Notes under the pieces: generated by a model
What the model saw: the letters and a program-made list of their open reading frames with translations, nothing else
What the model was told of the DNA's origin: nothing
The model's database searches: none
In this document: piece after piece, positions 955-38,039 of the stretch
Layout: every line of letters begins with the position of its first letter
Position numbering within the stretch: position 1 is the first letter of the stretch
Program-made: the position numbers and the translations under genes
DNA from: Chiloscyllium plagiosum
Taxonomy: Eukaryota
Direction: 5' to 3'
DNA length: 39,464 nucleotides
Assembly (NCBI RefSeq): GCF_004010195.1
Contig: NC_057754.1
Location: 4,465,681-4,505,144 of the forward strand

Positions 955-1228
955 CTAAGTCTCTAATGTCCTTTCGCAGTCACTGCCAGTATCCATATCA
1001 TCATCCAGCACCACTACATAGAAGTTTCTTGTGTCATCATCCCCGACCTCAGCCCCGCTCGTTGTTTGGGCTGCTGCTCTATGTGCCCCAGTGTTCGTGT
1101 AGTAGACCTCACCCTGGTCCTCGAGGATGGGCAAGGTGGACAGAAGTTCCTGGAGAAGTGATCTGAGCTCAGCAAAGGTTGGTCGCTGTCCTGGATTCAG
1201 GAACCAGCAGCTGAGCATGAGGTGGTAC
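955..1228 (-). CDS. RTK terminal exon: kinase C-lobe end and C-terminal tail
   Basis: Acceptor ttctcttcccag. Reads (L)[29 protein letters not shown]...EVYYTNTG...CERTLET*. Confidence 0.93.
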
Positions 1229-10200: not shown

Positions 10201-13200
10201 GTGTAGAGGGAGCTTTACTCTGTATCTAACCCCGTGCTGTCCCTGTCCTGGGAGTGTTTGATGGGAGACTGTATCTAACTCTGTACTATAACTATCCTGG
10301 TGCGTTTGATGGGGGCAGTGTAAAGGAAGGTTTACTCTGTATCTAACCCCATGCTGTCCCTGTCCTGGGAGTGTTTGATGGGAAGACTGTATCTAACTCT
10401 GTACTATAACTATCCTGGTGCGTTGATGGGGGCAGTGTAGAGGAAGGTTTACTCTGTATCTAACCCTGTACTGTAACTGTCCTAGGAACGTTTGATGAGA
10501 GCAGTGTATAAGAAGCTTTACTCTATCTAAACACATGCTGTCCCTGCCCTGGGAGTGTTTGATGGGGACAGTGTAGAGGGAGCTTTGCTCTGTAACTAAC
10601 CCCGTGTTGTCCCTGTCCTGGGGAGTGTTTGATGGGGGACAGTGTAGAGGGAGCTTTGCTCTGTAACTAACCCCGTGCTGTCCCTGTCCTGGGGAGTGTT
10701 TGATGGGAACAGTGTGGAGGGAGCTTTACTCTGTATCCCCTGCCCTGGGAGTGTTTGATGGGGACAGTGTAGAGGGAGCTTCGCTCTGTAACTAACCCCG
10801 TGCTGTCCCTGTCCTGGGGAATGTTTGATGGGGGACAGTGTAGAGGGAGCTTCGCTCTGTAACTAACCCCGTGCTGTCCCTGTCTGGGGAGTGTTTGATG
10901 GGGGACAGTGTAGAAGAAGCTTTACTCTGTATCTAACCCCGTGCTGTCCCTGCCCTGGGAGTGTTTGATGGGGACAGTGTAGAGGGAGCTTCGCTCTGTA
11001 ACTAACCTCGTGCTGTCCCTGTCTTGGGGAGTGTTTGATGGGAACAGTGTGGAGGGAGCTTTACTCTGTATCTAACCCCGTGCTGTCCCTGTCCTGGGTG
11101 TGTTTGATAGGGACAGTGTGGAGGGAGCTTTACTCCGTATCCTGCTTGACCATGCCCACTCCTCACCTCACAACTCTACATGGTCACTTTCCAAAGGGAT
11201 TCACCGGGTAGCAACTTATGATCTTTTTTTTGGTATTTTCGAATCAACCTGTTCAGAGATGTCACGACCTCTAGAGTAGGTGGGAATATGAGCCCATGCC
11301 TCCTGGCTCAGAGGTAGGGATACTACTACTGCACCAGAAGAGCCTAGCCCGTGTTTTTCATTTAATGCCATGCCTGACCCAGTTCAGGTGCTAAGACTAT
11401 TTTTGTGCTCCTGTCAGTGTTTCTACTGTGACCATCTAAATCATCACGGAGTCCAAGAATCAAATGAAAGGTCATAATGGTGTGTATGGCTTCGTTCCAT
11501 CTCGGGCAATTAAAAACCCAAATGGTGGTGGGTTATTAAAAAGGGAGCTAAATAGGCTGCCAAAGAAGATAATCACAAACCCTGAATGACACACCCAAGC
11601 CACCTAGGGGCTAAACACGACTCACATGCAATTCCGAGCTGCCAGGTCTCTGTGTAGAAAGCCTTGGTTACTCAAATACTCCATCCCTGAGGCAATGTCA
11701 ATCATGAACTTCAGGATGACCTGCAGAGGTATGTACTAGGAAAAGAAAGAGATACTGTCTTAATGTCAAGCACGTTGAAACATTTCCAATATTCGGCCAT
11801 GATTTCAGCAATGCGTTAGCACCATCTCGTCTTTGAGTCAGAACACTTTGGGATATAGCTGCCAACCTGGAAACCTGAACACTTAATCCAGACCAACATT
11901 CCCAGTGCAGTACTGAGGGAATGCTGCACTATTTGAGATTCTAAATGAAATTTTAAGCTCAAGTTTCCATCTGACTTCTCAGGTGAACCACAAAAGTGCC
12001 ATTGTATTTGAAGAACAGCTAAGTAGTTTTGACTGCTATCCTGGTCAATGCTTAACCTTCAATCTGTTGTTCATGAGACCTTGCTGCATGCAAACTACTG
12101 CTACATTTCCCACAGAACAAAATGGTACCTAAACTTCAAACTAAGTGGCTACAGATCTCTATGGGGTACCCGAGATAATCAAAGGTCCTATATAAATCAC
12201 AATGTAATTTCTCTTTGACTCTATAGAGATCCCTTCATTCCATTCAGCCTCTATACTCATCCCTACACATCGACCAATAACCCATTTTTAAACATTCATT
12301 CATGGGATGTGAGCACCAACTGGCTGGGCCCAGCATTTATTGCCCATCCCTAGTTGTCCATGAGAGGGTGGTAGTGAGCTGCTTTCTTGAACCATTGCAG
12401 CCCATTTGCTGTAGGTAACTTGCAAAACCCTTTTTCCAGCTTTTACCCAGCAACTGGTGTTTGGTGTTCTCATAGCTTTCAAATAGCAATCTCTGAATAT
12501 CTCCATCCTCTAGGATGGGGGAGCCTAGCACATTAGTGTGAGAGATATAGCTAAAACATCCACAACGGGATGATCCTATTCAATCTTCTTTAGAATCAGT
12601 TTCCAGTCTCCAGCCAATTTGGTTCACTCCATGTTATAGGTTATAAAACCTGACAATAGCACTGTGCTCCAGAACTTGCCGGACCCCTAGCCAAGCTACA
12701 ACACTGGGATCTAGCCGACAACATGGAAAATTGTCCAGGTAGGTCCTGTATATAAAATGCAGGACAAATCCAAATCAGAAATTACCACCCAATCAGTCTA
12801 CTCTTGATCCTCAGTAAAGTGATGGAAGGGGGTCATCAACAGTGCTCCTAAGCAGCATTTGCTTAGCAATAACCTATTCACTGACGCTCAGTTTGAGTTT
12901 TACTAGGGTCACTAACCTTCTGACCTTATTATAGCCTTGGTTGAAACATGGACAAAATCGTTGACCTTCAGAGGTGAGGCGAGAGTGACTGCGCTTGACG
13001 TCAAGGCCTCATTTGTCCTCAAGGAGCCCAAGCAAAACTAAAGCCAATGGGAACTGAGGGGCAGGGGGTTTGGTTTGAGTCATAAATAGCACAAAGGAAG
13101 TGGCTGTGGTTGTTGGAGGTCTGTCATCTCTGAGGAGTTCCTCAGACAAAAACAATGCAAAACCTGCTCCATCAATGACCTTCCCTCCACCATAAGGTCA

Positions 13201-16200
13201 GAAGCGGGGATATTCACTGCTGACTGCACAATGTTCAGCACCATTCATAACTATTCAGATACTGAAACAGCCTGTGTCCAAATGCAGCAAGACCTGGACG
13301 ATATCCAGGTTTGGGTCGACAAGAGGAAAGTACCTTTTGCACCACGTTAAGTGCCAGGCTAAAACAGCAGCTCAGAAGCCAGGAATTCTGCAGCACGTAA
13401 CTCAGTAATTTGTTTCACATAATTTCCTTAAGGAAGCACCCAGATATATTTTACATGTTTAGAAGTGCTATATAAACACAAGTTGTTGTTGGAGACTGGG
13501 CAGATTCCCAGAGGAAGAGCGGATGGGTGCGACAGTTCTGTTCCAACAGAAGCCCAGCAGCAGGATGACCGAGGAATAGTCCCTTGTCTTTGTGATCCAG
13601 AAAAACCGAGGGAGCAGTGGCTAACTCACACCCCACAGTGTCCAAGACCTGAACAGAGGCCTGGAAAGAAATGGAGCAATGAAACACACATAACAAAAGG
13701 TAGGAGCTGACTACCAGTGGCCTCATGGGCTGTTGCTATGGGTTCCAATGGATTAATGTGAATTAGATCCAGTTACCACAGGGTTTTTTCTGTGCCGTGA
13801 GTCGAGGAGAAAGCTGCGGAGGTCTCCGTGAGGCATGAAAGGAAGGATGACCATCGGCATTGGTATTTGTCCTGCAGAGCAAACTTCGAGTGATATCCCT
13901 ATGGAAAATAGAGAAATAACCAATGTCAACCCACAACCACTGAGCGTTCCCAACAGGAACAGAGAATAATTGATGATATTTATGCTTCATTGATCAAGGT
14001 GTACAGAAAGTGAGGAAGTTATGCTGAACCTTTATAAATCACTGATTTAACCTCAGCTGGAGTATTGTGTCCAACTCAGGGCATTACATTGTAGGAAACA
14101 TATTAAAGTCCTAGTGAGGTTGAGTGGTGACGTTATAGAGTTTATAAAACAATGAGGGCTGTAGATAAGGTGAATAGTAGTGTCTTTTCCCGAGGGGGGA
14201 GCATTTCAAGACTAGGGGACATATTTTTAAGGTGAGAGGAGAAAGATTCAAAACAGACATGAGGGGCAACTTCTTTTACACAGACTGTGGTTCGTGTGTG
14301 GAATGAATTTTCAGAGGGAGTGGTGGATGTGGATGGGGTTACAATGTTTAAAAGACGTTTGAATAGGTTCATGAATATGAAAGGTTTCGAGGGATTTGAG
14401 CCAAGCGCAGGCAGATGGGACTACTTTAATTTGGGATTATGGTCAGCACAACTAGTTGGACCAAAGGATCTGTTTCCATGCTGTATGACTCGATGACTCG
14501 AAGTGCTTAGAAGAAATGTATACAATGCTGAATGGTGTACCAAGATCTCAATTGCATGTAGAGACACAAGCATGGTTCTGTTTATATGTACATGTGAATT
14601 AAGAGCAGGAGTAGGCCACTTGGCCCCTCGACCCTACTCCACCATTCAGTAAGATGGTGCTGATCTGTTAGGGTGGCATGGTGGCTCAGTGGTTAGCACT
14701 GCAGCCTCACAGTACCAGGACCTGGGTTCAAGTCCTGACTCAGGTGATTGTTTTTGTGGGGTTTGCACATTGTCTACATTGGTTTCCTCCCACAATCCAA
14801 AGACGTGCAGATTGGGGTGGATTGGCCATGCTCAATTGCCCATTGTGTTGGGTACATTAGTCAGATAAATGTATGGGAATGGGTCTGGGTGGGTTACTCT
14901 TCGGAGGGTCGATGTGGATTTGTTGGTCTGAAGGGCCTGTTTCCACACTGTAGGGAATCTAATCTAATCATGATTACCCTATATTTCTGCTAACTCTCAT
15001 AATCCTTAACTCCCTCACTTATCAAGAATCTATCTTCCTCTGCCTTAAAAATATACAATGATTCTACTTTTACTTCCTTTTGAGAATTATGGCCGACCGA
15101 GAAAAAGAAATTCTCATCTCTGTCATAAATGGGTGACCCTTTATTTTTAAACAGTGACCCTATTTTTCGATTCTCCCACCACAGGAAACACACTCTCCAC
15201 ATCTGCCCCTCAGGATCGGATATTTTCCAATCAAGTCACCTTCTACTCTTCTTACCTCAGCAGACACAAGTCTGTCAAACCTGTCCTCAGAAGAAAAGCC
15301 AGGTATTACTCTGGTAAACCTTCTCTGAACTGCTTCCAACACATTAACGTCCTTCTTTATTATAAGGTGACCAGTACTGTACACAGTACTCCAAATGTGA
15401 TCCCACCAAATGCCCTGTGTAACTGAAGCATTGCCTCCCAAGTTAAAGTGGAGATTTAATCAGGAACAGTTTTGATAAGGGTGACCAAGGATAAATCGTC
15501 CCATTGGCTGGGGGATCAATAACCTATTGTCACAGACTTAAAGCAGGAGAAAATGAGGACTGCAGATGCTGGAGAATTTCCGAGCAGAATTTCCGAAAAG
15601 CCACTGGATAGATCTTAAGAAGAAAACACTGTAAGGCTATTAGAAGAGGGCAGGGAAGTAGGACTAATATTCAACTCTTTCATGGATCTAGTAAAGGCAT
15701 AATGAGCCAAATGACCTCTATCTGTGCTTTATGATTCCATGATTCTAAAATCACAAAATTTTTTTTCTTTCTCATTCATTCTGTTAAGATTCTGAACTCT
15801 ATAAAGCCTAAATCTACTTTAGCTTAAAAGCTTGCTCCCACAGAATCAGACAGTATGGAAGAGGCCCTTCGGGGGTGGGGGAGGCGGCCAGAACTGTTCT
15901 AAATCTACACTTGACCCACTTCCCAGCACTAGGCGCAGAGCTTTGAATATTGTGGGATTTCAATTGCTCATCCAAGTACCTTTCAAAGGTTATACCACAT
16001 CTTGAATGCTCTTTTTCCAGTTAATAGACAAATGGAACCTAGTCATTCGATCCTATCTCATCTCTAACCACAAATGCTCATCCCCAGACATCATTCATCA
16101 ATTGAAACTTGTTACAAATACTCTATCCTACCTTTAATATAAGGTAAACATGGAGAAAATTATTCTGCACATGCGGGAGACCAAAATTAGAACTAAATGA

Positions 16201-19200
16201 CAGCACCTCCCAAAGCTGCAGCCAGGTAGGTGAACAAGAACATGACATTCAAGCAACTGTCATCACTTCCAAATTCCCCTCCAAGCCAGACGCACACATT
16301 AGCACAACAGAACCCCCCTGGTCCTCACCTTCCACTCCACCAATCTCCGTATGCATCACATCATCCTCTGCCATTTCCGCCACCAGGAATTAATTTCCAT
16401 CTCCAACCCTTATCCACTTTCCGTAAAGATTGTTCCCTCCATGACTACCTCATCAGGTCCACGAACCCTGACAACCCTCCCTCCCTCCCTCCCTGGTACC
16501 TTGTCCTGCCACTGCAGGAATTGCAAAACCTGCACCAACACCTCCTCCCTCACCTCCATCCAAAGCCCCAAAGGAGCCTTCCACATCCATCAAAGTTTCA
16601 CGGAGCCTTCCACATCCATCAAAGTTTCACCTGCACTTCCACACATGTCATTTACTGTATCCGTTGGTCCCAATGTGGTCTCCTCTACATTGGGGAGACA
16701 GGACGTCAACTCGCAGAGTGCTTCAGAGAACATCTCTGAGACACCCGCACCAATCAACCCTACTGCCCCGTGGCCGAACACTTCAACTCCCCCTCCTGCT
16801 CTGCCGAGGACATGCAGGTCTTGGACCTCCTGCATCGTCACTCCCTTATTACCCAATGCCTGGAGGAAGAACGCCTCATCTTTCACCTCGGAACACTTCA
16901 ACCCCAGGGCATCAATGTGGACTTCACCAGTTTCCTCATTTCCCCCTCCCCCCACCTTATCTCAGTTCCAACCTTCCAGCTCAGCATTGCCCTCATGACC
17001 CATCCCATCTGTCCATCTTCCTTCCTATCTATCCGGTCCACCCTCCCCTCTGACCTATCACCTTTATCCCCACCTCCACCTTCCTATTGCACTCTCAGCT
17101 CTCTTCTCCCCAGCCCCAACCCCACCCATTTATCTCTTCACCCCCGAGGCTCCCAGCCTCCTTCCTGATGAAGGGTTTTTGCCCGAAACATCAATTTTCC
17201 TGCTCCTTGGATGCTGCCCGACCTGCTGTGCTTTTCCAGCACCACACTCTTGATACTACTTCCTCCATCATTGTCAAGTCAAAATCCCGGAACTCCCTAA
17301 CAGCAAGATTTTTACCCAAAGATTGCTGCAGTGGTGAAGAAGCATTTTTCCATTTAGTGACGAGCATCAAAACTCTGGGCTTGCTAGTAGCACAATTTTT
17401 TTGTTTTAAAATAAAGCTTTATGTTTAATTTCTATGCAAGTAATTCTTCCAGTAAGAGAGGCAAATGACGTAACCTACCTGGTGAAAACAACTCTACTCA
17501 AAGTATGGCCTTTGAATGACCTCTGAACTGGCTCCTATAACAGTCTCTGGCTGATAAATGTGGCTCTGAGCCTCAGTTAAAGCCCTTCCTGGCTGTTGCC
17601 TACACTGGGATTTATCGCAGACCCCCTTCCTATCCTTGATCACCAGCAAAACAAGGCAGATTTGTATTAGGAAGCAGGATTGTCTCAGTTTCCCAAGTGA
17701 AAACACATGTCATTGGCAAACTCCATGCTTTGTACCGATAAGTCTGAGGACATTTGGATGGTCGAAGCCTTGCATCAATTCTGCTTCCCTTAAAAAGGAC
17801 TCCAGCTCTGGCTTTGAATCAAGTCCGTCTGAAAGAGAACGAGAAGATTTCAAAACAAATTAATCCCATGAAAGATGCATTGCAATAGAATGTTAATTGT
17901 GGTCTTGACTCATTCTCAGGCCAGGTTGGTCATTTCAAAAGTTATGCCTGTGGTAAAAGGGAGCTCCAGACATCTCTTTCTTGTGGATAGAGTTTAACGA
18001 CTTCTCAGTCACACAGCTCATTCCAGACCTTGGTGTTGCAAGCACTGCCTGTACAGCTTCTACCTGGCTAATCTGGCACTGTCTGGTCCTGCAACCTCAC
18101 TGCTTCTGAACATAGAACATAGAACAGTACAGCACAGAACAGGCCCTTCAGCCCATGATGTTGTGCTGACCACTGATCCTCACGTATGTACCCTCAAATT
18201 TCTGTGACCATATGCATGTCCAGTAGTCTCTTAAATGTCCCCAATGACCTTGCTTCCACAACTGCTGCTGGCAACGCATTCCATGCTCTCACAACTCTCT
18301 GTGTAAAGAACCTGTCTCTGACATCCCCTCTATACTTTCCTCCAACCAGCTTAAAACTATGACCCCTCGTGTTAGTCATTTCTGCCCTGGGAAATAGTCT
18401 CTGGCTATCGACTCTATCTATGCCTCTCATTATCTTGTACACCTCAATTAGGGCCCCTCTCCTCCTCATTTTCTCCAGTGAAAAAAGTCAGAGCTCAGTC
18501 AACCTCTCTTCATAAGATAAGCCCTCCAGTCCAGGCAGCATCCTGGTAAACCTCCTCTGAACCCTCTCCAAAGCATCCACATCTTTTCTATAATAGGGCG
18601 ACCAGAACTTGGAATACCAGCAGTATTCCAAGTCCGGTCTAACCAAAGTTTTATAGAGCTGCAACAAGTAAACCTCCTCTGAACTCTCTCCAAAGCATCC
18701 ACATCTTTCCTATAATAGGGCGACCAGAACTGGACGCAGTATTCCAAGATGGTCTAACCAAAGTTTTATAGAGCTGCAACAAGATCTCACGCCTCTTAAA
18801 CTCAATCCCCCTGTTAATGAAAGCCAAACACCATATGCTTTCTTAACAACCCCATCCACTTGGGTGGCCATTTTAAGGGATCTACGTACCTGCACCCCAA
18901 GATCCCTCTGTTCCTCCACACTGCCAAGAATCCTATCCTTAATCCTGTACTCAGCTTTCAAATTCGACCTTTCAAAATGCATCACCTCGCATTTATCCAG
19001 GTTGAACTCCATCTGCCACCTCTCAGCCCACCTCTGCATCCTGTCAATGTTCCGCTGCAGCCTACAACAGCCCTCTTTACATTTCGAATATTTACTTCCT
19101 TCGTAATTTTTCACAAATGCAGTTCTGTTCTATACATAACAAGAAAACCAATAAACATTGGAGTTTGACTCTACCCAAATAAACCAAAAACATCTCTTAC

Positions 19201-22200
19201 ACATACAAGACTATATTTACATACATTTGAGGAACTGGGAGGGTCCAATAGCTGAATGGACACCCAATTAACTTCAGCAGGAAGACCTTAGACAGCAGTC
19301 TTCCCCACTACACCTTGGTGGCAGCTGTCCCAAGCATCAGTGCATACATCAGCACGTAGCCCAGGACCTTGGAATGTGCCAGTCTGCACTCTCAGTTGAG
19401 GTCAACTCCTTGCTCTGGAAAACCAACAAGTTTTGGGCATAGAAAAGAGCGTCTTTGACTAAATTGATGGTCATCCAGGCGCAGTCGATGTTTGTCTTGC
19501 TGTGTGTCCCAGGGAACAGACCATAGAGCAGAGAGTCCTGTGTCATGGAACTGCTTGGGATGAGCCTTGACAAAAACCCGCACTGCTTCTGAAGGTTTTC
19601 TGAAAACCTTATAGTTCTCTGTGCCCTACCCTCCTAAAAGCTGCACCAGTATGAACTTTTCAATGAACATGGGTCAAATTCCAAGTGGCCTTGTGAGCAG
19701 TGGCAGTGTCCCTACCTCTAGGATAGAGGGTCCAAGTTCAAGTCCCACTTACCCCAGAGGTGTGTCACAACATGTGATCTTCGCCCTATACAAGCAGCTG
19801 CATCACTGGTTCATGCAAAGTTATTGTTTGGGTCATGAGATCATTGCGTCTGCACATGCCCAGTCTGCACTCACATGAAGCATTGTGAGCAGCTTAAAGA
19901 CTGCAACACCTACAAAGCAGATCATATATATTCTCAAAAGCAACTGCTTCACATCTCATTTTATGTCGGACATCAATTTGTAAACATGATAAAATAAACT
20001 CCTGTGCTGACTCTGACCTGTGACCTCCCATGGTCCTGGGAAATCTGCCATCCAGATCTGAGGCATCCAGATTTCACAGGTTCAATCGAATAACATATCT
20101 GAGCAGGTTGATAGAAAATATCTCAAATTCATTCTCTAATGAAGCAGCATGTTTTTTGTCACATACATGACAACACTACAACACAAGAGAATAGACAGTG
20201 TTGAAATGAGGCAATGTTTTGCTTTAGAACAACATGCTACTAGAATGTAAGCCAATACGTTTAATGTTGTTTGATGCATTTTGTGTGGTATTCTTAAACC
20301 TTCAGATCAAATTCCTCCCTTCATCAAATTCCTTCCTGTTTTCTCCCACTGCAGAGAATCCAACTGACTAACCCTCTTCCTATTCATTTCCACGACACAG
20401 AATCCCAGCCGACCAACGCCCTTACCATCGGCTCGCACTGTTCAGAATCCCAACAGATCAACCTTTTTCCATTCACTCCCACCACACAGAATCCCAACAA
20501 ATTAACACCGTTCCCATTCACTCCCACTGCTTAGAATCCCAATGGATCCAGCCCCTTCCTATTCACTCCCACTACACAGAATCCCAATGGACTAACCCCC
20601 TTCCCACTTACTCCCACCAGACAACATCTCAGTGGATCAACCTCTTTCCTATTCACTCACATAGGATCCCAACTGGGCGAATTCCATTCCCATTCATTGC
20701 TACTATCTCGAATCCAAGCCACTTCTTGTTCATTGCACACCCCATAGATTCCAAAGGATCAAATCTTTTCCTCCACGTATAAAATCTCAACAGATCGAAT
20801 GTCCCATCACTCAAAGACTTCAATACCAAATACCTTTTCACCAGTTATCTTAACCCACTGCAGCATGTCTTAAATTCTTCAAGATCTGACTCCACAGGTT
20901 TCTAACTTACGTTTCATTGTCTTAACAGCGACGTTCTGGTTGATGCCCGTGGATTGCTTGAGTATTCCCTGGTACACTGAGCCAAATTCACCTAAATACC
21001 AGGGATAAGAGACAGAAGGGTCAGCACACCAATACTGTTCCAGCTGCCATGAACAATATCATCCTCTGAATTAAACTGGAAAACTTTGTTGGCAATTGCT
21101 GTGCGCTCTGTCTAGCATGGTACTGACCCCTGCACACCTGGATAGCCTGTACCAAGTTAGCCACTCTCAGGTAAGACTATACTTGAGGGGGAATGAGCAT
21201 TTGGAGTGTTACTTTGTTGATAGGGAGAAGAGAGACAAGTATTTGACAGTGGTGGGAGTGGGGAGGAAACCAGAGTTCCTGCACCTGATCTTTTCCCAGT
21301 GACTTCAGTTGTGACAGGTAGCAACAGAATCGAGTCGCACTGTTGTGACACCCTCACGATCAGTGGAGGCTCAGACACAGAGGTCCTGGAAGGATTTAAG
21401 TGCTCATCGAACTGTAGTACAGCAAGACAATGCCACCAGGAAAAGATGGGAGGAAATGAAACCAGACATTGAATTAATGAGAAACACAAAGCTAAGGGCA
21501 TGAAGCAGAAGAGACGGCAATGGGCATTTCAGAAGCAGAGGTCAAAGAGCCATTGTCTTTTTGGAGATGTACAGCAAACCTTCCTCAGTCCGTGGACCAT
21601 CATTCACATACGTGCTGCTTATCACGGATGCAACCTTTGTGATCCGAACACAGCATATGCATGTATTGCCTTAGGAGTCAGCTGCAGACAGAGTGGGTAG
21701 CATCTTTTGCCTCTGGGCTGGAAATGCTGTGACCGGAAAGAGAGGTGTGGCACCATGTTAATGTCCATGGACTAGTAATCCACCCAGGACATGGGTTCAA
21801 ATCTCACCCATGGCAGCTGGTGGAATTTGAACATGATTCCTGGAATTCTATAAGGGTGGGAAATCTGCAGTCCTTACCTGGTCTTGCCTCCACGTGACTC
21901 CAGATCCTCAATGATATGCTTGACTCTGAAATGGGCTAACTACATAGTCCAAAGGCAATTAGGTTTGGACAATAAATGCCATATCCCATGAAACAATACA
22001 TTTTGAAAATGTCACACTTCAGAGACATGAGGACCTAATCGATGTTGACACTCTCAGTTATGTCTTTTGGGCTTGGTAACTTGAGGTCCAGCTGCCTTTT
22101 CAGTCAGACAGAAAAGATCCCACAGTTACTAATCATAAACGTACAGGAGAGTTCTGTCAATATTTATCCCTCAAACACCTCACCAACGCAATTTGTCTGA

Positions 22201-25200
22201 TTGTTGTTTGTGGAAGCTTGCGGTGTCTGAAATAGGCTGCCAGGTTTCAACATTTCGACCAGTGACGACGCTTCAGAAGTACCTTGTTAGCTGCCATGCA
22301 TTTTGTTGAGAAAGGTGCTCGATAAATGCAAGGCCTCTTTCCTATTTCCACATACCTTCGCCAAGGATTTGACCCAGGGACAGAGAGCTCCTTTCCACCA
22401 TCACCTTCTTCAGGTTCAGCTTCAGAGAGTCACTGATACCGAGATGCTGCACTAGAAATAAAAAAAGCAAGATATGATCAGAGGAGGCAGCGTACGGCAA
22501 GAAGACGTGACAAAGAAATGTGAGCGTGCCAGAGAGAAAGAGAGAACAGGGACAAGGGTGGAGAAAGAGGAGTGGCAGAGAAGCACTGAGACCAGTAAGA
22601 AAGAAGGAAGGAAAGGAATACGTAAAGTCATTGAGTCATAGAGGTTAACAGCACGGAAACAAACCCTTTGGCTCAAACTGCCCAAGACATCCAGTTTTCT
22701 CAATTAAACTAATCTCACTTGCCTGTGTTTGGTCCATATCCCTCCAGACCCATCCCATCCATGTACTGTCTGAATGTTTCTTAAATGACAAAACTGTACT
22801 CACCTCCACCACTACCTCTGGCAGCCCGTTCCAGACACTCACCACCCTCTGTGTGAAAAAATTGCCCCTCTGGACCCTTTTGTATCTCTCTCCTCTCACC
22901 TTAAACCAATGCTCTCTAGTTTTGGACGCCCCTAGCAATGGGAAAAGCTGTTGGTTAACTACCATTTCTATGCCCCTCATGATTTTACATACCTCTATAA
23001 GGTCACCCCTCAGTCTCCTCTGCTCCAGGGAAAAGAATCCCAGCCTCTTCTTATAACTCAAACCTTCTAGTCTAGGTAGCATCCCAGTAAACCTTTTCTG
23101 TGCTGTTTCTGGTTTAATAATATTCTTTCTACAGCAGGGCGCCCAGAACTACTCGCATGTGGCCTCACCAACGTCTTGTACAGCTGCAACAAGACATCCC
23201 ATCTCCGACACTCAATGCTCTGACTGATGAAAGCTCCACGCCAAAAGCCTTCTTCACCAGCCTGTCTTCCTGTGACTCCTGCCTACCTGAATACTTGTAC
23301 AGAAGAACATACAGACTGAACCGTGGCCAATCCAATGACTTACATCGGCCCTCTTCAGTTTCCTTCCTGTAGGATCTTCCTGTGTTGAGTGGGACCAGCT
23401 GTGATTTTGTTCCTGTTTTGCACCTGGGAAATGAATTGTGTAGAGAAATCTATCCAAGACAAGTTAAAACCTTATGGTCACATACACTTCCTGCCCAGAA
23501 GAACATACTTTCTGCTGTCAAGTTGGTGTCCCATATTTTGAGTCAACTTTTTCCATTATAAATTTCTATGGTCTGCATGTGTAATAGAAGTTACCCACAT
23601 AGTATTGAGTCTACAGCACAGATACAAGCCATTCAACCCAACCTCTCATGTCGGTGTCATTCTCCATTGATACTTCTCTCTTCTTCTCACCCATTGGTTT
23701 CTAACCCAATAATAACTCTTTACTATTCCTTTTTTGTTCATGTGTTTATCTGAGATGGAGCGAACAGGAGCAGCAGTAGGCCATTTGACAGATCGAGCCC
23801 ACTTTGCCATTGCTATGATCATGGCCCGATGCCCAATTGCAATACCACCCTCCTGTGCTCCCCCCATGCCCATTCAGTGTTTAGAAATGTATTTCTTTTT
23901 TAAGTATATGTAGTGACTTGGCCCCAACAGCCTCATGCTGTGGAGCATTTCACAGGTCCATCAGCTTCTCAGTGAGGACATTTCTTCTCATCACCGTGCT
24001 AAATGTCCCCTTCTACATCCTGAGGCTGAGTCATCTTATTCTAAACCCCCCAGGGCATGTATCAGCTCTGCATCCAATCTCTCCAGCCTGTCAGAATTCT
24101 TTGTTCAATGCAATCACCTTTCCCTTCCAAACTCCAGGGCATACAGGCCTGGCTGACCCAGTCTCGCCTCACACGACAACCCTGCCATCACAAAGATGAG
24201 CATTTACTATACTCTCTCCCTCAGAACTATACTTCTTCTGAGGTAAGGAGACTAAAGCTGCACAAAATACTCTAAGTCTAGTCTCACCAAGGCTCTGTAC
24301 AGCTGCAGCAAGATACCCCTGCTCTTGTACTCAAATTCTCTTGCAACAAAGGCCAACATATCATTTACATTCTTAACTGCTTGCTGTACCTGCATGCTTG
24401 TTTTTAGTGACCGGTGTAAAAGGACACCCAGTGGGTTCCTTTCTATATAAAATTTCCCAATCTATCATAATTTAAGTCATATTCAGCCATTCTGTTTTCC
24501 TACCAAAGTGAATAACTGCACACGTATTCATGTTATTTTCCCGTTCATGCAACTTGTCCAAATCACCTCTTTAGATCCGCCACACCATTCATCTGGTTTC
24601 ACTTTAATTGTGTCTATGTATCTATCAATGCCTCTCCATGGGCTCGATAGGGTGGAATCTAGAACTGGGGGCACTGTTTCATAGTAAAAAGCTTTAGGAT
24701 TGAAATGCAAAGTAATTTCTTCACTGAGAGGGTGGTGAGTCTTTGGAATTTTCTACCTCTGAGGGTGGTGCAGTCTCAGTCATTCAGGATATAGAACAAT
24801 AGATTTCTAGACATTAAAGATACCAAGGGGTCGGGATATAATGGCATTCAGGTAGAGAATCAGCCAACGATCCAGTTGAGGAGGTTCAATGGGCAAAATG
24901 GCCTATCCCTACTTCTATTTTCTATGTTCCTATTTATCTCTTCTGCTTTGTGTGGGTGTGGGTATATCAGAGAGTGTTACAGTGAGGGGTGTGGGGTATA
25001 TCAGAGAGTGTTACAGTGAGGGGTGTGGGGTATATCAGAGAGAGTTACAGAGAGGGGTGTGGNNNNNNNNNNNNNNNNNNNNNNNNNNNNNNNNNNNNNN
25101 NNNNNNNNNNNNNNNNNNNNNNNNNNNNNNNNNNNNNNNNNNNNNNNNNNNNNNNNNNNNNNNNNNNNNNNNNNNNNNNNNNNNNNNNNNNNNNNNNNNN

Positions 25201-28200
25201 NNNNNNNNNNNNNNNNNNNNNNNNNNNNNNNNNNNNNNNNNNNNNNNNNNNNNNNNNNNNNNNNNNNNNNNNNNNNNNNNNNNNNNNNNNNNNNNNNNNN
25301 NNNNNNNNNNNNNNNNNNNNNNNNNNNNNNNNNNNNNNNNNNNNNNNNNNNNNNNNNNNNNNNNNGGTATATCAGAGAGTGTTACAGTGAGGGGTGTGCG
25401 GTATATCGGAGAGTGTTACAGTGAGGGGTGTGGGGTATATCAGAGAGTGTTACAGTGAGGGGTGTGGGGTATATCAGAGAGTGTTACAGTGAGGGGTGTG
25501 GGGTATATCAGAGAGTGTTACAGTGAGGGGTGTGGGGTATATCAGAGAGTGTTACAGTGAGGGGTGTGGGGTATATCAGAGAGTGTTACAGTGAGGGGTG
25601 TGGGGTATATCAGAGAGTGTTACAGTGAGGGGTGTGGGGTATATCAGAGAGTGTTACAGTGAGGGGTGTGGGGTATATCAGAGTGTGTTACAGTGAGGGG
25701 TGTGCGGTATATCGAAGAGTGCTATAGTGTGCAGTATATCAGAGAATGCTATAGTGAGGGGTGTGGGGCATATCAGAGAATGCTGCAATGAGGGGTGTGG
25801 GGTACATCAGAGAGTGTTACAGTGAATGATGTGGGTTTGATCAGTGGAATATCAGTGTTAATTTAAGGGGTCTCGGGTAACTCGGATTAGAGTGTTACGG
25901 TGATTGTAATTGTAGAGTGTTACGGTGATTGTAATGTGTCTGTTCCTCAGACAGGGTTTAATTCTTACTTGTCCTTCATTTTCATTCTCCAACTGACAAA
26001 CAAGCCAATGAACAGCACTAGCACCAGCAGTGCACCTCCAAATGCTGCCAGTATGACCCCAGACTGTAGATCTCCATTGTGAATAGTTGGTACAGCAGTT
26101 TTGGTGGTGAGGTCTTGATTCTCAATCTCTGTGTGATACAAACAGAAAAATTGTTAGTGAGGATGTTAACAAGTGAGATAACTGCCTTCAGTAATGCAAT
26201 GACCATGTCTTTCACCTGTTCCAATGAGCTAGCCACCAATCATTGTCTACATTTAATATAGTTAGGTAATAACCCGCAAGGAACTTATATACTGTGCAGA
26301 GATTTCTCTTTCTTTACTTTTTCCTTGGATGTGGGCATTATTAGCAAAACAAGCAGAGTGGCTCAGTGGTTAGTGCTGCTGCCTCACAGCATTTGTTCAA
26401 TCCCAGTCTTGTGCAACTGTCTCAAGTTTGCATTTTTGGGAAAGCAAATCTTAGCAGGACTTATACACTTAATGGTTAGGTCCTAGGGAGTGTTAAAGGA
26501 GAAAGTGAGGTCTGCAGATGCTGGAGATCAAAGTTGAAACTTTATTGCTGGAACAGCACAGCAGGTCAGGCAGCATCCAGGGAACAGGAGATTCGACGTT
26601 TCGGGCACAGGCCCTTCTTCAGGAATGAAGGGAGTGTTGCAGAACAAAGAGACCTGAAGTGCAGATTCATAGCTCCTTGAAAGTGGAGTCGCAGGTAGAT
26701 AGGATAGTGAAGAAGGCGTTTGGTATGCTTTCCTTTATTGGTCAGAGTATTGAGTACAGGAGTTGGGAGGTCATATTGCGGCTGTACAGGACATTGGTTA
26801 GGCCCACTGTTGGAATATTGCATGCAATTCTGGTCTTCTTCCTATCGGAAAGATGTTGTGAAACTTGAAAGGGTTCAGAAAAGGGTGGTGCGTGTATGGA
26901 ATGAGCTGCCAGAGGAAGTGGTGGAGGCTGGTACAATTGCAACATTTAAGAGGCACCTGGATGGGTATATGAATAGGAAGGGTTTGGAGGGATATGGACC
27001 GGGTGCTGGCAGGTGGGACTAGATTGGGTTGGGATATCTGGTCGGCATGGATGGGTTGGACCAAAGGGTCTGTTTCCATGCTGTACATCTCTATGACTCT
27101 ATCTGTGTGGGCTTCCTCTGAGTGATCCAGTTTCCTCCCACAGTCCAAAGATGTGTAGGTTAGTGTGCACTGGCTGCACTATGTTGCCCATAGTGTCCAG
27201 GGGATGTGAAGACTAGGTGAGTTGGCTGCTGGAAATGGAGGGAAGGTGGCGAGATGCTTTTTGGAGGAACAGTGCAGACTCAAAGGGATGAATGGCTTCT
27301 TCCTGCACTGTAGGGATTCTATAATTTGTGCCCATCCCCAAGTACCATTGAACTAAGCAACTTACTAGGCCATTTCTGAGCCAAACACATTGCTGGGGTT
27401 CCCTTTCCTTAAGGACATTAGTGAACCAGACGAGTTTTTCAACAATGGTTTCACGGTGATCATTGGATTTTTAATTCCAGATTTTTATTGAATTCAAATT
27501 TCACCATCTGCCATAGAAAGATTATCTGGATTAATATTCCAGCGATAATACCACCGGGCCTTTGCCTCCCTGCTATCAGTGCAGTAATCTACATAAGGTC
27601 CACTTGATGAGCTTTTACTTTAGGGATCTGCTGTTCAGTTGAGAGATTTGTGTTACCTTCACCATACACTCAATTTGTCCCATGGATACAGAAAAACACA
27701 GATGTGTGATATTATCGTCCATTGTCACATCAAGCAATAGGTTTACTGACTCTGGGATCTACCCAATGGGTGCAGGAGACCTTGGGTTCCTCCACCACGA
27801 TCCTATTTACCCCCCTGTGTACATGAAGATGGAAGGGAGCTGTTCATCCCTCTGGTTGATATCACTGACTGATGTGACTGAACAACATCATTTGTTTAAA
27901 ACTCTAAAACCTCCCCAGATGGATGGACTGTCACCATTGTATAAAAAAGTGGTCAAGGTCACTCGTAAAAACATGTTTATGCATTAATTTGCGATATCGC
28001 ACAGTACAACTTCGACCCCAAGGGAGCCCTAGCATCGGACCATACCTACCAGTGTTCCCAAGTTAAAAACAAATAAAGATTTGTAACAATAAAGAAAATC
28101 AACACATCCCAAACTGCATTACAACCAATCAAGGACTTTGGAAGTGTAGTAACCTTTGAAATATTGCTGCAAATTGCACATAGCATGCTGCCACAAATAG

Positions 28201-30235
28201 AAGGATGATAATGACCGGGTAATAAACTTTAGTGATTTCAGTTGTGAGCCCTCAGGTCCTGTTTTTCATTGAAAAAGGACATTGAATGCTTATACCCAGT
28301 TGAGATGGGCTTCCATTTGATATTGCCTCTGGAGAACAGCACCTCATGCTGTGCAGCGCTAACTCAGTACTGCACTGGGGCACCTCCTGCTGTGCAGCGC
28401 TAACTCAGTACTGCATTGGGGCACCTCCTGCTGTACAGCACTCCGTCAGTACTGCATTGGGACACCTCCTGCTGTAAAGCACTCCCTCAGTACTGCATTG
28501 GTACACCTCATGCTGTACAGCACTCCCTCAGTACTGCAATGGGGCACCTCCTGCTGTATAACACTCCCTCAGTACTGCATTTGCACACCTCCTGCTGTGC
28601 AGTGCGCCCTCAGTACTGCATTGGGACACCTCCTACTTTACAGCACTCCCTCAGTACTGCATTGGGGCACCTCCTGCTGTGCAGCACTCCCTCAGTACTG
28701 CATTGGGGCACCTCCTGTTGTACAGCACTCCCTCAGTACTGCATTGGTACACCTCATGCTGTACAGCACTCTCTCAGTACTGCATTGGGGCACCTCCTGC
28801 TGTATAACACTCCCTCAGTACTGCATTTGCACACCTCCTGCTGTGCAGTGCGCCCTCAGTACTGCATTGGGACACCTCCTACTTTACAGCACTCCCTCAG
28901 TACTGCATTGGGGCACCTCCTGCTTTACAGCACTCCATCAGTACTGCATTGGGACACCTCCTGCTGTATAGCACTCCCTCAGTACTGCATTGGGGCACTT
29001 CCTGCTTTACAGCACTCCCTCAGTACTTCATTGGGACACCTCCAGCTGTGCAGCACTCCCTCAGTACTGCATTGGGACACCTCCAGCTGTGCAGCACTCC
29101 CTCAGTACTGCATTGGGACACCTCCTGCTGTACAGCACTCTCTCAGTACTGCATTGGGGCACCTCCTGTTGTACAGCACTCCCTCAGCACTGCATTGGGC
29201 ATCTACTGCTGTACAGCACTCCCTCAGTACTGCATTGGGGCACCTCCTGCTGTGCAGCACTCCCTCAGCACTGCATTGGGGCATCTACTGCTGTACAGCA
29301 CTCCCTCAGTACTGCATTGGGGCACCTCCTATTGTACAGCACTCCCTCAGTACTGCATTGGGACACCTCCTGCTGTGCAGCACTCTCTCAGTACTGCATT
29401 GGGGCACCTCTTGTTGTACAGCACTTCCTTAGTACTGCATTGGGACACCTCCTGCTGTGCAGCACTTCCTTAGTACTGCATTGGGACACCTCCTGTTGTG
29501 CAGCACTTCCTTAGTACTGCATTGGGACACCTCCTGCTGTGCAGCACTCCCTCAGTACTGCATTGGGGCACCTCCTGTTGTACAGCACTCCCTCAGTACT
29601 GCATTGGGGCACCTCCTGTTGTACAGCACTCCCTCAGAACTGCATTGGGGCACCTCCTGTTGTACAGCACTCCCTCAGCACTGCATTGGGGCCCCTCCTG
29701 CTGTACAGCACTCCCTCAGTACTGCAATGGGGTGTCAAGCTAAACATTGCATAAAAACCCCTTGGATGAGACTTGAATTTACAAACTTGTGGCTCAGAAG
29801 ATGGAAGCACTGCGCATTGATCCATGGCCGATGTGTGATTTTGATGATTAAAGGTGTCAAAGATTATTTGGCAATAACTGCACAGAAAAATCAGTGAATT
29901 GTAGCAGCTGTAACAGTAGTACATTGAAGCACAGAATGGCTCCCCCGCCTCTCCAGGATATATACAGCTTCCAATATTTTCCAGGTTTACTTTCTACCCA
30001 TGGAGAAAGTTTCTTCAGTGTATATCTCCTATTTCGCACGAACACTGACAATTTTCGCTGTAATGCTTCTTACCGTAGGCAGTGCAAGCAGCCGACGGAG
30101 AGTGTGCCTCAGTCCTGTTGTAACCACTTAAACATGGGCAGGAGACAGAGGCCTCAGTATCGGAATGACTGTTGGTGGGGCATTTGGTGCAGTCGCCGTG
30201 CCCTGGTGTGTCCTTGTAATATCCTATTTTACAAG
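955..30235 (-). CDS. Multi-exon TAM-family-like receptor tyrosine kinase with an Eph-type cysteine-rich ectodomain module (5'-partial; 11 exons reconstructed)
   Basis: Exons 30074-30235, 25969-26128, 23344-23423, 22356-22451, 20911-20991, 17736-17828, 13777-13898, 11626-11735, 9568-9727, 4836-4972 and 955-1228 splice with GT-AG and matching phases into one frame ending in TAG at 955-957. Motifs [52 protein letters not shown] and SDVWSFG are present. It cannot be confidently assigned to AXL, MERTK or TYRO3. Confidence 0.9.
1315..1780 (+). mobile_element. Rex1/Babar-like LINE 3' fragment with a small insert
   Basis: Degenerate IIKDPSxP.YTLF...GRR...[15 protein letters not shown] reading, followed by a 3' tail ending aataataaatcaaatcaaa. 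Confidence 0.65.
2050..3365 (-). mobile_element. Tx1/L1-clade LINE fragment (RT C-terminal region)
   Basis: YMDDIAIF motif near 3345-3360 and ORF 2989-3192 (LGIWFGGAG...KVRQKLDLW...LLYVAQVW). The frame is disrupted. Confidence 0.8.
3380..3685 (-). mobile_element. tRNA-derived SINE (second family), inverted relative to the copy at 3960-4295
   Basis: Reverse-complement similarity to 3960-4295 (gagtcaaccacattg, ggtgaaccagatgggtt, aaattccaccagctgcc). Confidence 0.6.
3960..4295 (+). mobile_element. tRNA-derived SINE (second family); other copies at about 21745-21995 (+) and 27330-27570 (-)
   Basis: B-box-like ggttcaaacc, shared core tagggaaggaaatctgcc...gtgactccagacccacagcaatgtggttgactct, and a LINE-like tail. 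Confidence 0.65.
4836..4972 (-). CDS. RTK kinase exon (137 nt)
   Basis: Acceptor cattcacag, donor GTAAG. Reads [45 protein letters not shown](L). Confidence 0.95.
5228..5912 (-). mobile_element. HE1-like tRNA SINE with an internal 53-bp tandem expansion
   Basis: The minus strand starts gtggctcagtggttagcact...ggttcgattcc (A/B boxes) and has the ggtttcctccca-tagtccaaagatgtgcag core. caatttagca recurs at 5508, 5561, 5614, 5667 and 5720. Confidence 0.85.
7010..7458 (+). mobile_element. CR1/HER1 LINE 3' fragment
   Basis: Degenerate [13 protein letters not shown]...SKTRGHKFK...RGNFFMQRV reading and the typical tail gagggatatgagccaaatgctgg. Confidence 0.85.
7457..9038 (+). mobile_element. Penelope-like element (GIY-YIG endonuclease end plus 3' region), interrupted by a SINE
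   Basis: Reads [36 protein letters not shown]...EHFSGPGH...AERRLIAKF...GFN, then a CA-rich tail. It resumes after 8757 with a ctgatga...gaaa motif. Confidence 0.8.
8410..8757 (-). mobile_element. HE1-like tRNA SINE, near full length
   Basis: The minus strand starts gggcagcacggtggttcagtggttcgcactgctgcctcacagc and has a CR1-type tail ending ccacactgtagggattc. Confidence 0.9.
9568..9727 (-). CDS. RTK activation-loop exon (160 nt)
   Basis: Acceptor ttttgcacag, donor GTATG. Reads (M)[53 protein letters not shown]. Confidence 0.96.
10030..11140. repeat. About 70-bp minisatellite (gggagtgtttgatggggacagtgtagagggagctttactctgtatctaaccccgtgctgtccctgtcct)
   Basis: Period 70 (for example 10180 and 10250), roughly 16 units, some internally deleted. 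Confidence 0.95.
11626..11735 (-). CDS. RTK catalytic-loop exon (110 nt), missed by the ORF track
   Basis: Acceptor cttttcctag, donor GTGAG. Reads [36 protein letters not shown](M). Confidence 0.95.
11805..12215 (+). mobile_element. DeuSINE (SacSINE1/AmnSINE1-like), old copy
   Basis: cagtgcagtactgaggggaatgctgcact...tctcaggtgaa...tatttgaagaacag...tcctggtcaat...ctatataaat follows the Deu-domain order as I recall it. Confidence 0.7.
12660..13405 (+). mobile_element. LINE reverse-transcriptase fragment (CR1/L2 group)
   Basis: Degenerate [17 protein letters not shown]...[15 protein letters not shown]...[10 protein letters not shown] and INDLPS...IFTADCTMF readings. Confidence 0.75.
13777..13898 (-). 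CDS. RTK hinge exon (122 nt)
   Basis: Acceptor attttccatag, donor GTAAC. Reads (G)[40 protein letters not shown]. The [13 protein letters not shown] motif is TAM-like. Confidence 0.94.
13990..14500 (+). mobile_element. CR1/HER1 LINE 3' fragments
   Basis: ORF 14287-14496 ([29 protein letters not shown]) and the CR1 tail. Confidence 0.8.
14670..14968 (+). mobile_element. HE1-like tRNA SINE
   Basis: gggtggcatggtggctcagtggttagcactgcagcctcacag...gggcctgtttccacactgtagggaatctaatc. Confidence 0.9.
14985..15435 (-). mobile_element. CR1-type LINE 3' fragment
   Basis: ORF 15160-15441 ([20 protein letters not shown]). Confidence 0.75.
16300..17252 (+). mobile_element. Penelope-like element 3' part (GIY-YIG endonuclease) with terminal hammerhead-like motif
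   Basis: CHCRNCKTC...[37 protein letters not shown]...VAEHFNSPS...[20 protein letters not shown]. There is a 29-bp tandem duplication at 16573-16630. Confidence 0.88.
17736..17828 (-). CDS. RTK alphaC exon (93 nt)
   Basis: Acceptor ttctctttcag, donor GTACA. Reads (H)[30 protein letters not shown](G). Confidence 0.93.
18108..19078 (-). mobile_element. CR1/HER1 LINE 3' part (about 1 kb)
   Basis: ORFs 18710-19114, 18499-18747 and 18194-18469 ([43 protein letters not shown]), with a (ttctatg)n-type tail. Confidence 0.92.
19082..19595 (-). mobile_element. Tx1/L1-clade LINE 3' end, related to 2050-3365
   Basis: Shares ttggaatgtgccagtctgca...ccaacaagttttgggca...gcgcagtcgatgtt with 2190-2315. ORF 19349-19573 reads [10 protein letters not shown]...[13 protein letters not shown]. 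Confidence 0.75.
20335..20800. repeat. Degenerate 44-45-bp tandem repeat (cccattcactcccactacacagaatcccaatgga...)
   Basis: gaatccca recurs at about 20400, 20445, 20489, 20533 and 20578. Confidence 0.75.
20911..20991 (-). CDS. RTK Gly-loop/VAVK exon (81 nt)
   Basis: Acceptor gtatttag, donor GTAAG. Reads (G)[26 protein letters not shown]. Confidence 0.94.
21690..22340 (+). mobile_element. DeuSINE-like element with a nested tRNA SINE (about 21745-21995)
   Basis: gaaaagatcccacag...caatatttatccctcaa...gtttgtggaagcttgc...ggctgcc...cttcagaagtac...ataaatgcaag. Confidence 0.6.
22356..22451 (-). CDS. RTK juxtamembrane/kinase-start exon (96 nt)
   Basis: Acceptor ttttttatttctag, donor GTATG. Reads (L)[31 protein letters not shown](G), which resembles the TAM LGxSxxL...LGxxLGEG segment. 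Confidence 0.92.
22628..23278 (-). mobile_element. CR1/HER1 LINE 3' fragment
   Basis: ORF 22645-23082 ([36 protein letters not shown]...[17 protein letters not shown]). Confidence 0.9.
23344..23423 (-). CDS. RTK juxtamembrane exon (80 nt, phase 2-1)
   Basis: Acceptor tcatttcccag, donor GTAAGT. Reads (K)[26 protein letters not shown](L), resembling the AXL-type KSYSRRTTEATL segment. It bridges the phases of the flanking exons exactly. Confidence 0.82.
23755..24570 (-). mobile_element. Degenerate CR1/L2-type LINE fragment
   Basis: Shares CR1 landmarks (ctcaccaaggctctgtacagctgcagcaag, aaggccaacat, tgtaaaaggacaccca). Confidence 0.6.
24955..25825. repeat. 34-bp minisatellite (ggggtatatcagagagtgttacagtgaggggtgt) spanning an assembly gap
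   Basis: Near-identical units lie on both sides of the N run and decay towards 25825. Confidence 0.95.
25063..25365. other. Assembly gap (303 N)
   Basis: Run of N bases. Confidence 1.
25969..26128 (-). CDS. RTK stalk plus transmembrane exon (160 nt, phase 1-2)
   Basis: Acceptor tcacacag, donor GTAAG. Reads (E)[52 protein letters not shown](K): a hydrophobic helix followed by a basic stop-transfer segment. Confidence 0.88.
26355..27322 (+). mobile_element. HE1-like SINE split by a CR1 fragment (about 26437-27102), which itself contains a 134-bp Penelope-derived insert
   Basis: SINE head gtggctcagtggttagtgctgctgcctcacagc at about 26358 and SINE body resuming tctgtgtgggcttcctctgagtgatccagtttcctcccacagtccaaag at about 27102. 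CR1 ORFs lie at 26659-27022. Confidence 0.85.
26591..26626 (-). ncRNA. Minimal type I hammerhead ribozyme motif (Penelope-associated)
   Basis: AUUC-CUGAAGA-A-GGGC-CUGU-GCCC-GAAA-C-GUC-GAAU: the core CUGANGA/GAAA, stem II GGGC/GCCC, stem I AUUC/GAAU and a GUC cleavage triplet are all present. Confidence 0.75.
28095..29815 (-). mobile_element. DeuSINE-like element hosting the 41-bp array
   Basis: 28100-28340 resembles the reverse complement of the Deu-domain 3' part. 29730-29815 (gtgtcaagctaaac...gacttgaatttacaaacttgtggctcaga) resembles its 5' part. Confidence 0.6.
28340..29730. repeat. 41-bp minisatellite (cagcactccctcagtactgcattggggcacctcctgctgta), about 34 units
   Basis: Head-to-tail units with no unique spacers. 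The array generates the long repetitive ORFs in the track. Confidence 0.97.
30074..30235 (-). CDS. Eph-receptor-type cysteine-rich/EGF-like exon (162 nt, phase 1-1)
   Basis: Acceptor ctcccacag, donor GTAAG. Reads (A)[53 protein letters not shown], matching the Eph pattern CxxGYYK...CxKCPxxSxS...CxCxxGYxR...CT. Contains an NRT sequon. Confidence 0.88.
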
Positions 30236-30304
30236 CTGTGGGAGGGACAGAATAAATCAATAAACGGTAAACAGGTAAAAATATTCAGTTCTGGATTGTT
30301 AAAA

Positions 30305-37973: not shown

Positions 37974-38039
37974 CTGGAGAGAAAAGGGACAGCGATTCAG
38001 GGCAACGCAAGACGCCAACAATACCAAAGATGATAATCG

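Follow-up and report, generated by a model that had tools for sequence, protein, structure and literature searches.

The 39,464-nucleotide stretch of Chiloscyllium plagiosum DNA analysed here (hereafter the window) carries the last 11 coding exons, at the 3' end, of a chimeric but intact gene for a receptor tyrosine kinase (RTK), in which an Eph-type ectodomain is joined to a TAM-type kinase. We consider it very probable, taking the explanation as a whole, that this gene descends from an Eph-TAM fusion shared by jawed vertebrates, that the first FN3 domain (FN3-1) was later lost in elasmobranchs, and that the product would work as a contact receptor with a TAM output.

The 11 exons lie on the minus strand from 30235 to 955 and give 490 open codons and a stop, with AG/GT splice sites and compatible phases throughout (Table 1). 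The phases originally read for the Eph-like exon (1-1) and the TM exon (1-2) agree with the exon coordinates and splice sites. Identity to a Hemiscyllium ocellatum protein (P0001) extends over 467 of the 490 codons. Pfam analysis of P0001 gave Ephrin_lbd, Ephrin_CRD, Ephrin_rec_like, a TM segment and a tyrosine kinase but none of fn3, Ig and SAM, and the open reading frame of the exon at 30074-30235 itself matched Ephrin_rec_like (E 1.2e-5). Residues 1-267 of P0001, corresponding to the ligand-binding domain (LBD) and sushi exons, fall outside the window; tblastn with three orthologs and a shark profile found no match within it (best score 1.2 bits). An Rfam search returned 0 matches.

Table 1. 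Coding exons, the EGF-TM intron and the repeats within it (positions in the window; residues are those of P0001).
Feature	Position	Strand	Remarks
EGF-like/Cys-rich Eph module exon	30074..30235	-	162 nt, phase 1-1, AG/GT, aa 268-322
Intron, phase 1, FN3 exon absent; putative exon-loss site	26129..30073	-	3945 nt, GT..AG
Minisatellite inside intron	28339..29732	.	41-bp unit, 34 copies
Dispersed repeats, class unassigned to SINE/LINE	26340..27620 (approximate)	.	very high contig depth
Stalk + TM helix exon	25969..26128	-	160 nt, phase 1-2, aa 322-375; parent TAM or Eph
Juxtamembrane exon 1	23344..23423	-	phase 2-1, aa 375-402; weak TAM similarity
Juxtamembrane exon 2 to Gly loop	22356..22451	-	aa 402-434, clearly TAM-type
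Kinase exon, VAVK	20911..20991	-	aa 434-461
Kinase exon	17736..17828	-	aa 461-492
Kinase exon	13777..13898	-	aa 492-532
Kinase exon, catalytic loop HRDLAARN	11626..11735	-	aa 533-569
Kinase exon, DFG + activation-loop tyrosines + KWMAIES	9568..9727	-	aa 569-622
Kinase exon	4836..4972	-	aa 623-668
Last coding exon: end of kinase, YxN tail motif, stop; SAM absent	955..1228	-	

The predicted protein carries a signal peptide and one predicted TM helix, and its sequence has the motifs of a catalytically active RTK (GxGxxG, VAVK, HRD and DFG). AlphaFold2 with an 88-row alignment modelled it at a mean pLDDT of 82.8, with ectodomain and kinase both confident; a run with a 7-sequence alignment gave a pLDDT of 30, and the 88-row model was used. 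The fold over aa 31-320 had pLDDT values mostly of 85-97, in an alignment that included Eph rows, while the stalk (323-340) fell below 50 and the TM helix started at 341. Prediction of an ectodomain homodimer, computed without the alignment, scored 0.00, a value that speaks neither for nor against a dimer. Of the 11 elasmobranch proteins, 10 have 27-29 residues between the last Cys and the TM segment, and the Pristis model has 20, so that the Cys module does sit near the membrane, as had been proposed.

The kinase half was clearly of TAM type. Its best PDB sequence matches were MER, AXL and TYRO3 (394-412 bits, vs. 245 for MET), and its fold matched Axl (5u6b; Z 38.0, rmsd 2.1, 290 aligned), both fold searches being filled by kinase matches. 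Identity was ~55-64% to TAM kinases and at most 39% to the Eph kinase. In a 40-row kinase tree, the 13 Eph-TAM proteins included (hereafter hybrids) formed one clade (support 100/98) inside the TAM group and far from the Ephs; a 23-row tree recovered the hybrid clade (99/96) and left its sister group open. A grouping of the hybrids with Axl was marginally rejected (AU p 0.04, on only two Axl-type rows, one of them long-branched). By script, HRDLAARN and DFG were present in all of 20 hybrids, and 19 of these have a YxN tail motif, the Grb2-type SH2 consensus; the TAMs checked have these motifs too. All 20 also have Met at the third position of KWMA(I/L/M)ES (KWMAIES in the window gene), a variant common to other RTKs. 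Pfam detected neither Ig nor TAM FN3 domains in the hybrids, and P0001 scored -2.4 bits on a TAM FN3 profile. Since these domains are absent, the hybrid lacks the Gas6/Protein S binding module. SAM domains were likewise without a match in the hybrids scanned, an Eph control matching SAM_1 at 1e-19.

The ectodomain half grouped with Eph receptors. In a 30-row ectodomain tree, 10 hybrids formed one clade (100/100) nested in vertebrate EphA (96/92), and the best PDB matches of a ray ectodomain fragment were EphA4 and EphA2. The EphA placement may be pulled by the long hybrid ectodomain branch (1.27), and the Eph sample in this tree was dominated by teleost EphA2/A6. The domains, the trees and the 490-codon frame all agree with the original reading of the gene as an Eph-ectodomain/TAM-kinase chimera.

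The presence of the hybrid in other species was also investigated. An ectodomain search yielded 11 elasmobranch proteins (9 sharks and 2 rays) among 1050 candidates, all with LBD, CRD and kinase; Pfam found Ephrin_rec_like in 10 of the 11 and fn3 and SAM in none. Among bony vertebrates, hybrids were found in the caecilians Geotrypetes and Microcaecilia, the salamanders Lissotriton and Ambystoma, the lungfish Protopterus, the sturgeon Acipenser, and Thalassophryne, Merluccius, Arctogadus, Brachyhypopomus and Danio (si:ch73-40a2.1). The Eph-TAM join is thus present in the models of at least 22 species, 11 elasmobranch and 11 bony-vertebrate. Sources of these sequences were name look-ups, a profile search against 1.84 billion representatives, with the best 150 matches listed, and a word search (best 120 of 196 matches, with 3 hybrids), the last of which was crowded by true Ephs among those best 120. 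An Eph LBD combined with a kinase scoring higher on the TAM than on the Eph profile was found in 32 of 333 proteins. No frog, amniote, holocephalan or cyclostome hybrid was among the best 150 or the best 120 of 196 matches listed; with neither holocephalans nor cyclostomes among them, the timing of the fusion is bracketed only loosely. A single origin before the split of cartilaginous and bony fishes would be the simplest reading of this distribution. The ESM Atlas also holds a 59-member chordate cluster with Pkinase and Ephrin_lbd, possibly the hybrid protein's own.

Most of the orthologs are automatic gene models, and their database names conflict (erbB-4-like, Mer-like, EphA2-like, UFO-like, TYRO3-like and HGF receptor). 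This inconsistency, a 303-N gap in the window at 25063-25365 and the position of the LBD exons outside the window would be expected if a neighbouring Eph pseudogene and TAM gene had been merged by annotation or misassembly. Such an artefact is highly improbable, given that the same join recurs in the models of 22 species, that the splice phases are compatible throughout, and that the whole hybrid occurs on single short contigs. Specifically, each of five Logan-assembled proteins in a newt cluster is the complete 852-aa hybrid, encoded on a contig of 4.1-5.2 kb. The length of a 2796-nt contig from run X1 also fits one mRNA. This contig matches the window only at 25967-26129, which is the TM exon plus chance-matching bases across the splice sites. 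On the 5' side of the TM exon the contig extends for 1008 nt, 44 more than the 964 coding nt predicted for a transcript without FN3; on the 3' side it extends for 1628 nt, against 1153 predicted coding nt. It therefore fits a near full-length mRNA without FN3, the EGF-TM splice being suggested by length arithmetic and the run being presumed RNA; none of the matching runs listed is recorded as RNA. A 604-nt contig from run X2 (also presumed RNA) likewise matches the TM exon only. Four runs were compared over 25940-28330, a stretch that ends short of the minisatellite and the EGF exon; X6 and X7 gave no cover of the TM exon, and the non-repeat part of the intron had almost no contig cover within this stretch, neither of which carries weight as evidence.

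The intron between the EGF and TM exons was searched for fn3 and Ig by Pfam on open reading frames and by six-frame profiles, as had been suggested. Pfam gave no match to either domain in the 65 scanned of the 130 open reading frames overlapping the intron. In six-frame translations of the whole window (stops as X), the maximum was 4.1 bits for a hybrid-FN3 profile, 4.3 bits for an Eph FN3-1 profile and 4.8 bits for a TAM FN3 profile, with no credible match in the intron for any of them. As positive controls, an EGF-exon profile built from bony vertebrates only recovered 30081-30239 at 59.6 bits, and the TAM FN3 profile gave 160-239 bits on three held-out TAMs. The earlier failure to read an FN3 exon in 26129-30073 was therefore confirmed, as was the presence of a minisatellite. 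Repeats, among them the minisatellite and the dispersed repeats of Table 1, account for 2378 of the 3945 nt by self-BLAST, which leaves about 1.2-1.6 kb of non-repeat sequence and not the ~450 bp of unique sequence previously given. The intron is ordinary repeat-rich DNA, of interest because it would mark the site of one module deletion.

The history of FN3 was reconstructed from the orthologs. Gene models of 8 of the 11 bony-vertebrate species place one FN3 after the EGF module and ahead of the stalk, and those of the 11 elasmobranchs have none there. A profile of this bony-hybrid FN3 gave 49-92 bits on the first FN3 of Ephs (18 of 19, with one split match), at most 15 bits on the second FN3 of Ephs and at most 12 bits on TAM FN3s (14 TAMs). 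The link between EGF and FN3 in the bony hybrids, CT-x-PPSAP, is the same as in Eph receptors. The bony FN3 being Eph FN3-1 with an Eph-like link, the ancestral donor segment would have run through FN3-1. The bony orthologs carry it at exactly the place of the intron at 26129-30073, so that the adjacency of EGF and TM exons would be a later elasmobranch deletion, and this intron most likely records the loss of the elasmobranch FN3 exon. The original prediction, a direct join of the EGF exon to a TAM-derived TM exon that leaves out the FN3 domains of both parents, is not supported, as 8 of 11 bony species keep Eph FN3-1.

Loss of modules was also seen elsewhere in the clade. FN3 is missing from the Arctic cod model, as are EGF and FN3 together from those of lungfish and zebrafish; in all three, the missing part begins at residues where the EGF exon of the window starts or ends. 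As these models are automatic, the absences may reflect skipped exons or model error. The idea that shuffling of symmetric phase-1 exons shaped the ectodomain is supported.

A direct fusion within this intron, from the Eph EGF exon to the TAM TM exon, would instead make the bony FN3-1 a later gain or the product of a separate fusion. The intron without a trace of FN3, the 11 of 11 elasmobranchs without the domain, and the position of elasmobranchs as the earliest split in the hybrid clade (in both kinase and ectodomain trees) are as this alternative would have them, and because of that early split parsimony alone cannot polarise gain versus loss. It would, however, require that an Eph gene donated a further segment in collinear order, as the bony FN3-1 stands directly after EGF, in Eph order and with the CT-x-PPSAP link, in the manner of one contiguous donor segment. 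Module loss in the cod, lungfish and zebrafish models also speaks against it, as does the single origin given by the kinase tree and the ectodomain tree each. We regard direct fusion as very unlikely, and retain a fusion through FN3-1 followed by loss in elasmobranchs.

Profile comparisons were used to place the breakpoint of this fusion. The TM region scored 33.8 on the TAM profile and 33.7 on the Eph profile, and this equality does not bear out the assignment of the TM exon to TAM in the original prediction. Six elasmobranch TM segments scored 8.7-19.7 on the Eph profile vs. 2.4-11.0 on the TAM profile. The test of TM origin is without power, because cross-family controls score as high, Ephs reaching 26.9 on the TAM profile. 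The TM exon of Eph genes is probably phase 1-2 as well, in which case the phase of the TM exon would not discriminate between the parents. TAM similarity was weak in juxtamembrane exon 1 (13.4 vs. 7.0 for Eph) and clear in juxtamembrane exon 2 (54.6 vs. 5.6). The breakpoint would thus lie after FN3-1 and before juxtamembrane exon 2, most plausibly just before or just after the TM exon.

In the latter case the TM exon came from the Eph parent, the breakpoint lies in the next intron (23424-25968, phase 2), and the intron at 26129-30073 never contained the fusion point but reflects a two-step loss of both Eph FN3s. The tied TM profiles, the higher Eph scores of the six elasmobranch segments, the probable shared phase and the fact that TAM similarity can be shown only for sequence 3' of the TM exon all lend something to this version. 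The equally high control scores detract from it, and it implies that the Eph FN3-2 exons were lost as well, a step that a TAM-derived TM exon does not require; we judge it a real possibility, with roughly one chance in three. It is a sub-case of the preferred explanation, in which only the breakpoint changes. If the TM exon is TAM-derived, the present intron still contains the ancestral breakpoint. The earlier placement of the fusion point in this intron holds on that condition only, and its direct EGF-TM join is not supported in view of the bony FN3-1.

The input of the receptor was considered from the conservation of the ectodomain. LBD and sushi are always kept in the full-length ortholog models examined, in which EGF and FN3 are optional, and this retention suggests that the LBD does something. 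EphB4 binds ephrin-B2, and EphB4 rows, like the hybrids, lack an Arg at the column that we take, from the R-D-C motif, to be equivalent to EphA2 Arg103. Of 66 Ephs, 89% have this Arg, and none of the 22 hybrids does; 7 of 11 bony hybrids have Glu there. The sushi motif W-[LV]-V-P, which has a role in Eph clustering, is changed as well, its Val being present in 59 of 66 Ephs and 0 of 22 hybrids. In EphA2, Arg103 forms a salt bridge with Glu119 of ephrin-A1, according to PMC8880657. Of 44 LBD columns conserved among Ephs (a set biased to teleost EphA2/A6), 26 are not kept, and those kept are mostly core Cys, aromatic and Gly positions. In the LBD, shark and bony orthologs are no more than 22-36% identical.

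These changes are what would be expected if the LBD had lost ligand binding, leaving a ligand-independent or co-receptor kinase or an ectodomain serving mainly as promoter, signal peptide and spacer. The EphB4 example, the retention of LBD and sushi while EGF and FN3 are dispensable (suggesting selection on the LBD), and the confidently predicted fold, albeit with Eph rows in the alignment, argue the other way, and both a dead LBD and a ligand-independent or co-receptor role for the hybrid seem unlikely. Judged from sequence, the input could be an ephrin bound with altered selectivity, or it could be a ligand other than an ephrin; we propose each tentatively, at somewhat below even chances.

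The fusion and its consequences could be envisaged as follows. Before cartilaginous and bony fishes diverged, an EphA gene would have contributed its 5' portion, from the signal peptide through LBD, sushi and EGF-like module to FN3-1, and a TAM gene, putatively the fourth vertebrate TAM paralog, its 3' portion, the two being fused within an intron that lay ahead of the TM exon (phase 1) or behind it (phase 2). The fusion would have replaced the Gas6-binding Ig-Ig-FN3-FN3 ectodomain and left out the Eph SAM domain. Modules may later have been removed at exon-like boundaries, namely FN3-1 in the elasmobranch ancestor and the Arctic cod model, and EGF with FN3 in the lungfish and zebrafish models. 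The product would be a single-pass receptor in which the Eph-fold LBD binds a cell-surface partner and brings active TAM kinases together, which would then autophosphorylate their activation-loop tyrosines and the conserved YxN tail site. Eph-like contact sensing would in this way feed a TAM-type output independently of Gas6/Protein S. The boldest form of this proposal, which we put forward with less than even confidence, is that of an unrecognised jawed-vertebrate RTK architecture in which two subfamilies were fused >400 million years ago. Such a receptor might still bind an ephrin or a new cell-surface ligand and turn contact into TAM-type signalling without Gas6. It would have been kept in sharks, teleosts, lungfish and non-frog amphibians (frogs and amniotes having none among the matches listed), with ectodomain length tuned repeatedly by phase-1 exon deletion.

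Subfamilies of vertebrate RTKs take their definition from the ectodomain, and in the census of 20 subfamilies the fourth TAM gene counts as an ordinary paralog. Should it prove to be an Eph-TAM fusion, it would represent a rare, dated case of a new receptor made from two RTK families and kept for >400 million years. The orthologs form a natural deletion series showing which Eph modules matter, and with the orphan receptor present in zebrafish and axolotl, tests of ligand, expression and knock-out are directly available. No description of an Eph-TAM chimera was found in the literature searched, most subscription papers lying outside the search, and the architecture was not found in passages of PMC7249569, PMC6993872 and PMC7067772. 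The chimera is real, old and apparently undescribed.

Several known systems can be compared with the hybrid. Axl-like (Axll) is described by Brunet, Volff & Schartl (2016; PMC4898815) as a fourth jawed-vertebrate TAM gene, missing in human and mouse and lost in tetrapods. No Eph ectodomain is mentioned for Axl-like in the methods and results passages searched, and the supplements and figures may show the architecture. In our trees no extra TAM clade of jawed vertebrates appears apart from that of the hybrids, and we infer with good confidence that the two are the same gene, although the reported tetrapod loss contrasts with the hybrids of two caecilians and two salamanders. Zebrafish si:ch73-40a2.1, a name not found in the literature searched, is an ortholog by the kinase tree and has Ephrin_lbd, Ephrin_CRD and a TAM kinase, but its models lack both the EGF-like module and FN3.

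The TAM receptors (TYRO3, AXL and MERTK) share with the hybrid the kinase, the juxtamembrane segment, the activation-loop tyrosines and the YxN tail. They differ in their ectodomain of two Ig and two FN3 domains, absent from the hybrid, and in their signature, which is defined as KW(I/L)A(I/L)ES and not KWMA(I/L/M)ES; the hybrid forms its own clade. EphA receptors share the LBD-sushi-EGF-like order and, with most bony orthologs, FN3-1, whereas the hybrid lacks the second FN3, the Eph juxtamembrane motif, the Eph kinase and SAM, and does not keep the Arg103 equivalent or the sushi V-P motif. On architecture, the hybrid falls outside both parent families.

The gene is collinear with the Hemiscyllium ocellatum hybrid protein (P0001). 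This collinearity shows that no coding exon is hidden by the 303-N assembly gap, which lies within a minisatellite in the intron 3' of the transmembrane (TM) exon. This intron is also the alternative candidate location of the Eph/TAM breakpoint. Upstream, the intron 5' of the EGF exon extends over more than 9.2 kb (window 30236-39464), and searches with tblastn of three orthologs and with a shark profile found no ligand-binding domain (LBD) or sushi exons within the window. At the other end of the gene, repeat-like sequence (window ~250-700) starts within a few hundred bases past the stop codon, and a piece of a retroelement is probably part of the 3' UTR. No AATAAA or ATTAAA was found between the stop codon and the window start.

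Tandem repeats were also present in other introns. The 41-bp array at 28339-29732 may have grown out of a dispersed repeat.

Repeats in introns of the hybrid gene (window coordinates)
Feature	Position	Remarks
34-bp minisatellite	24954-25825	intron 3' of TM exon; encloses 303-N assembly gap 25063-25365
70-bp minisatellite family	10039-11142; 35709-35871	two intronic sites, opposite orientations
Single copy, 93% similar to the 41-bp unit	11900-11929	opposite strand

Four ortholog models (P0011, P0009, P0058 and P0018) seem incomplete: that of Pristis is missing a portion of sushi/EGF, that of Pristiophorus stops inside the kinase, that of Hypanus consists of the ectodomain alone, and that of sturgeon is without two kinase-region segments. 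The juxtamembrane segment is longer in teleost orthologs than in sharks, and juxtamembrane inserts of 26 and 45 residues set the zebrafish isoforms (P0021, P0166, P0167) apart. The hybrid was also found in two caecilians and two salamanders (P0160, P0161, P0216, P0217), although the fourth TAM gene is reported to have been lost in tetrapods (PMC4898815); no frog or amniote hybrid was among the matches listed.

Alignment of the LBD across hybrids and Ephs revealed a cysteine pair (positions 105 and 111 of P0001) that sharks keep, as do 98% of Ephs. Most bony-vertebrate hybrids have lost this pair, and their FTLRDC segment is replaced by the acidic sequence FAQEEE.
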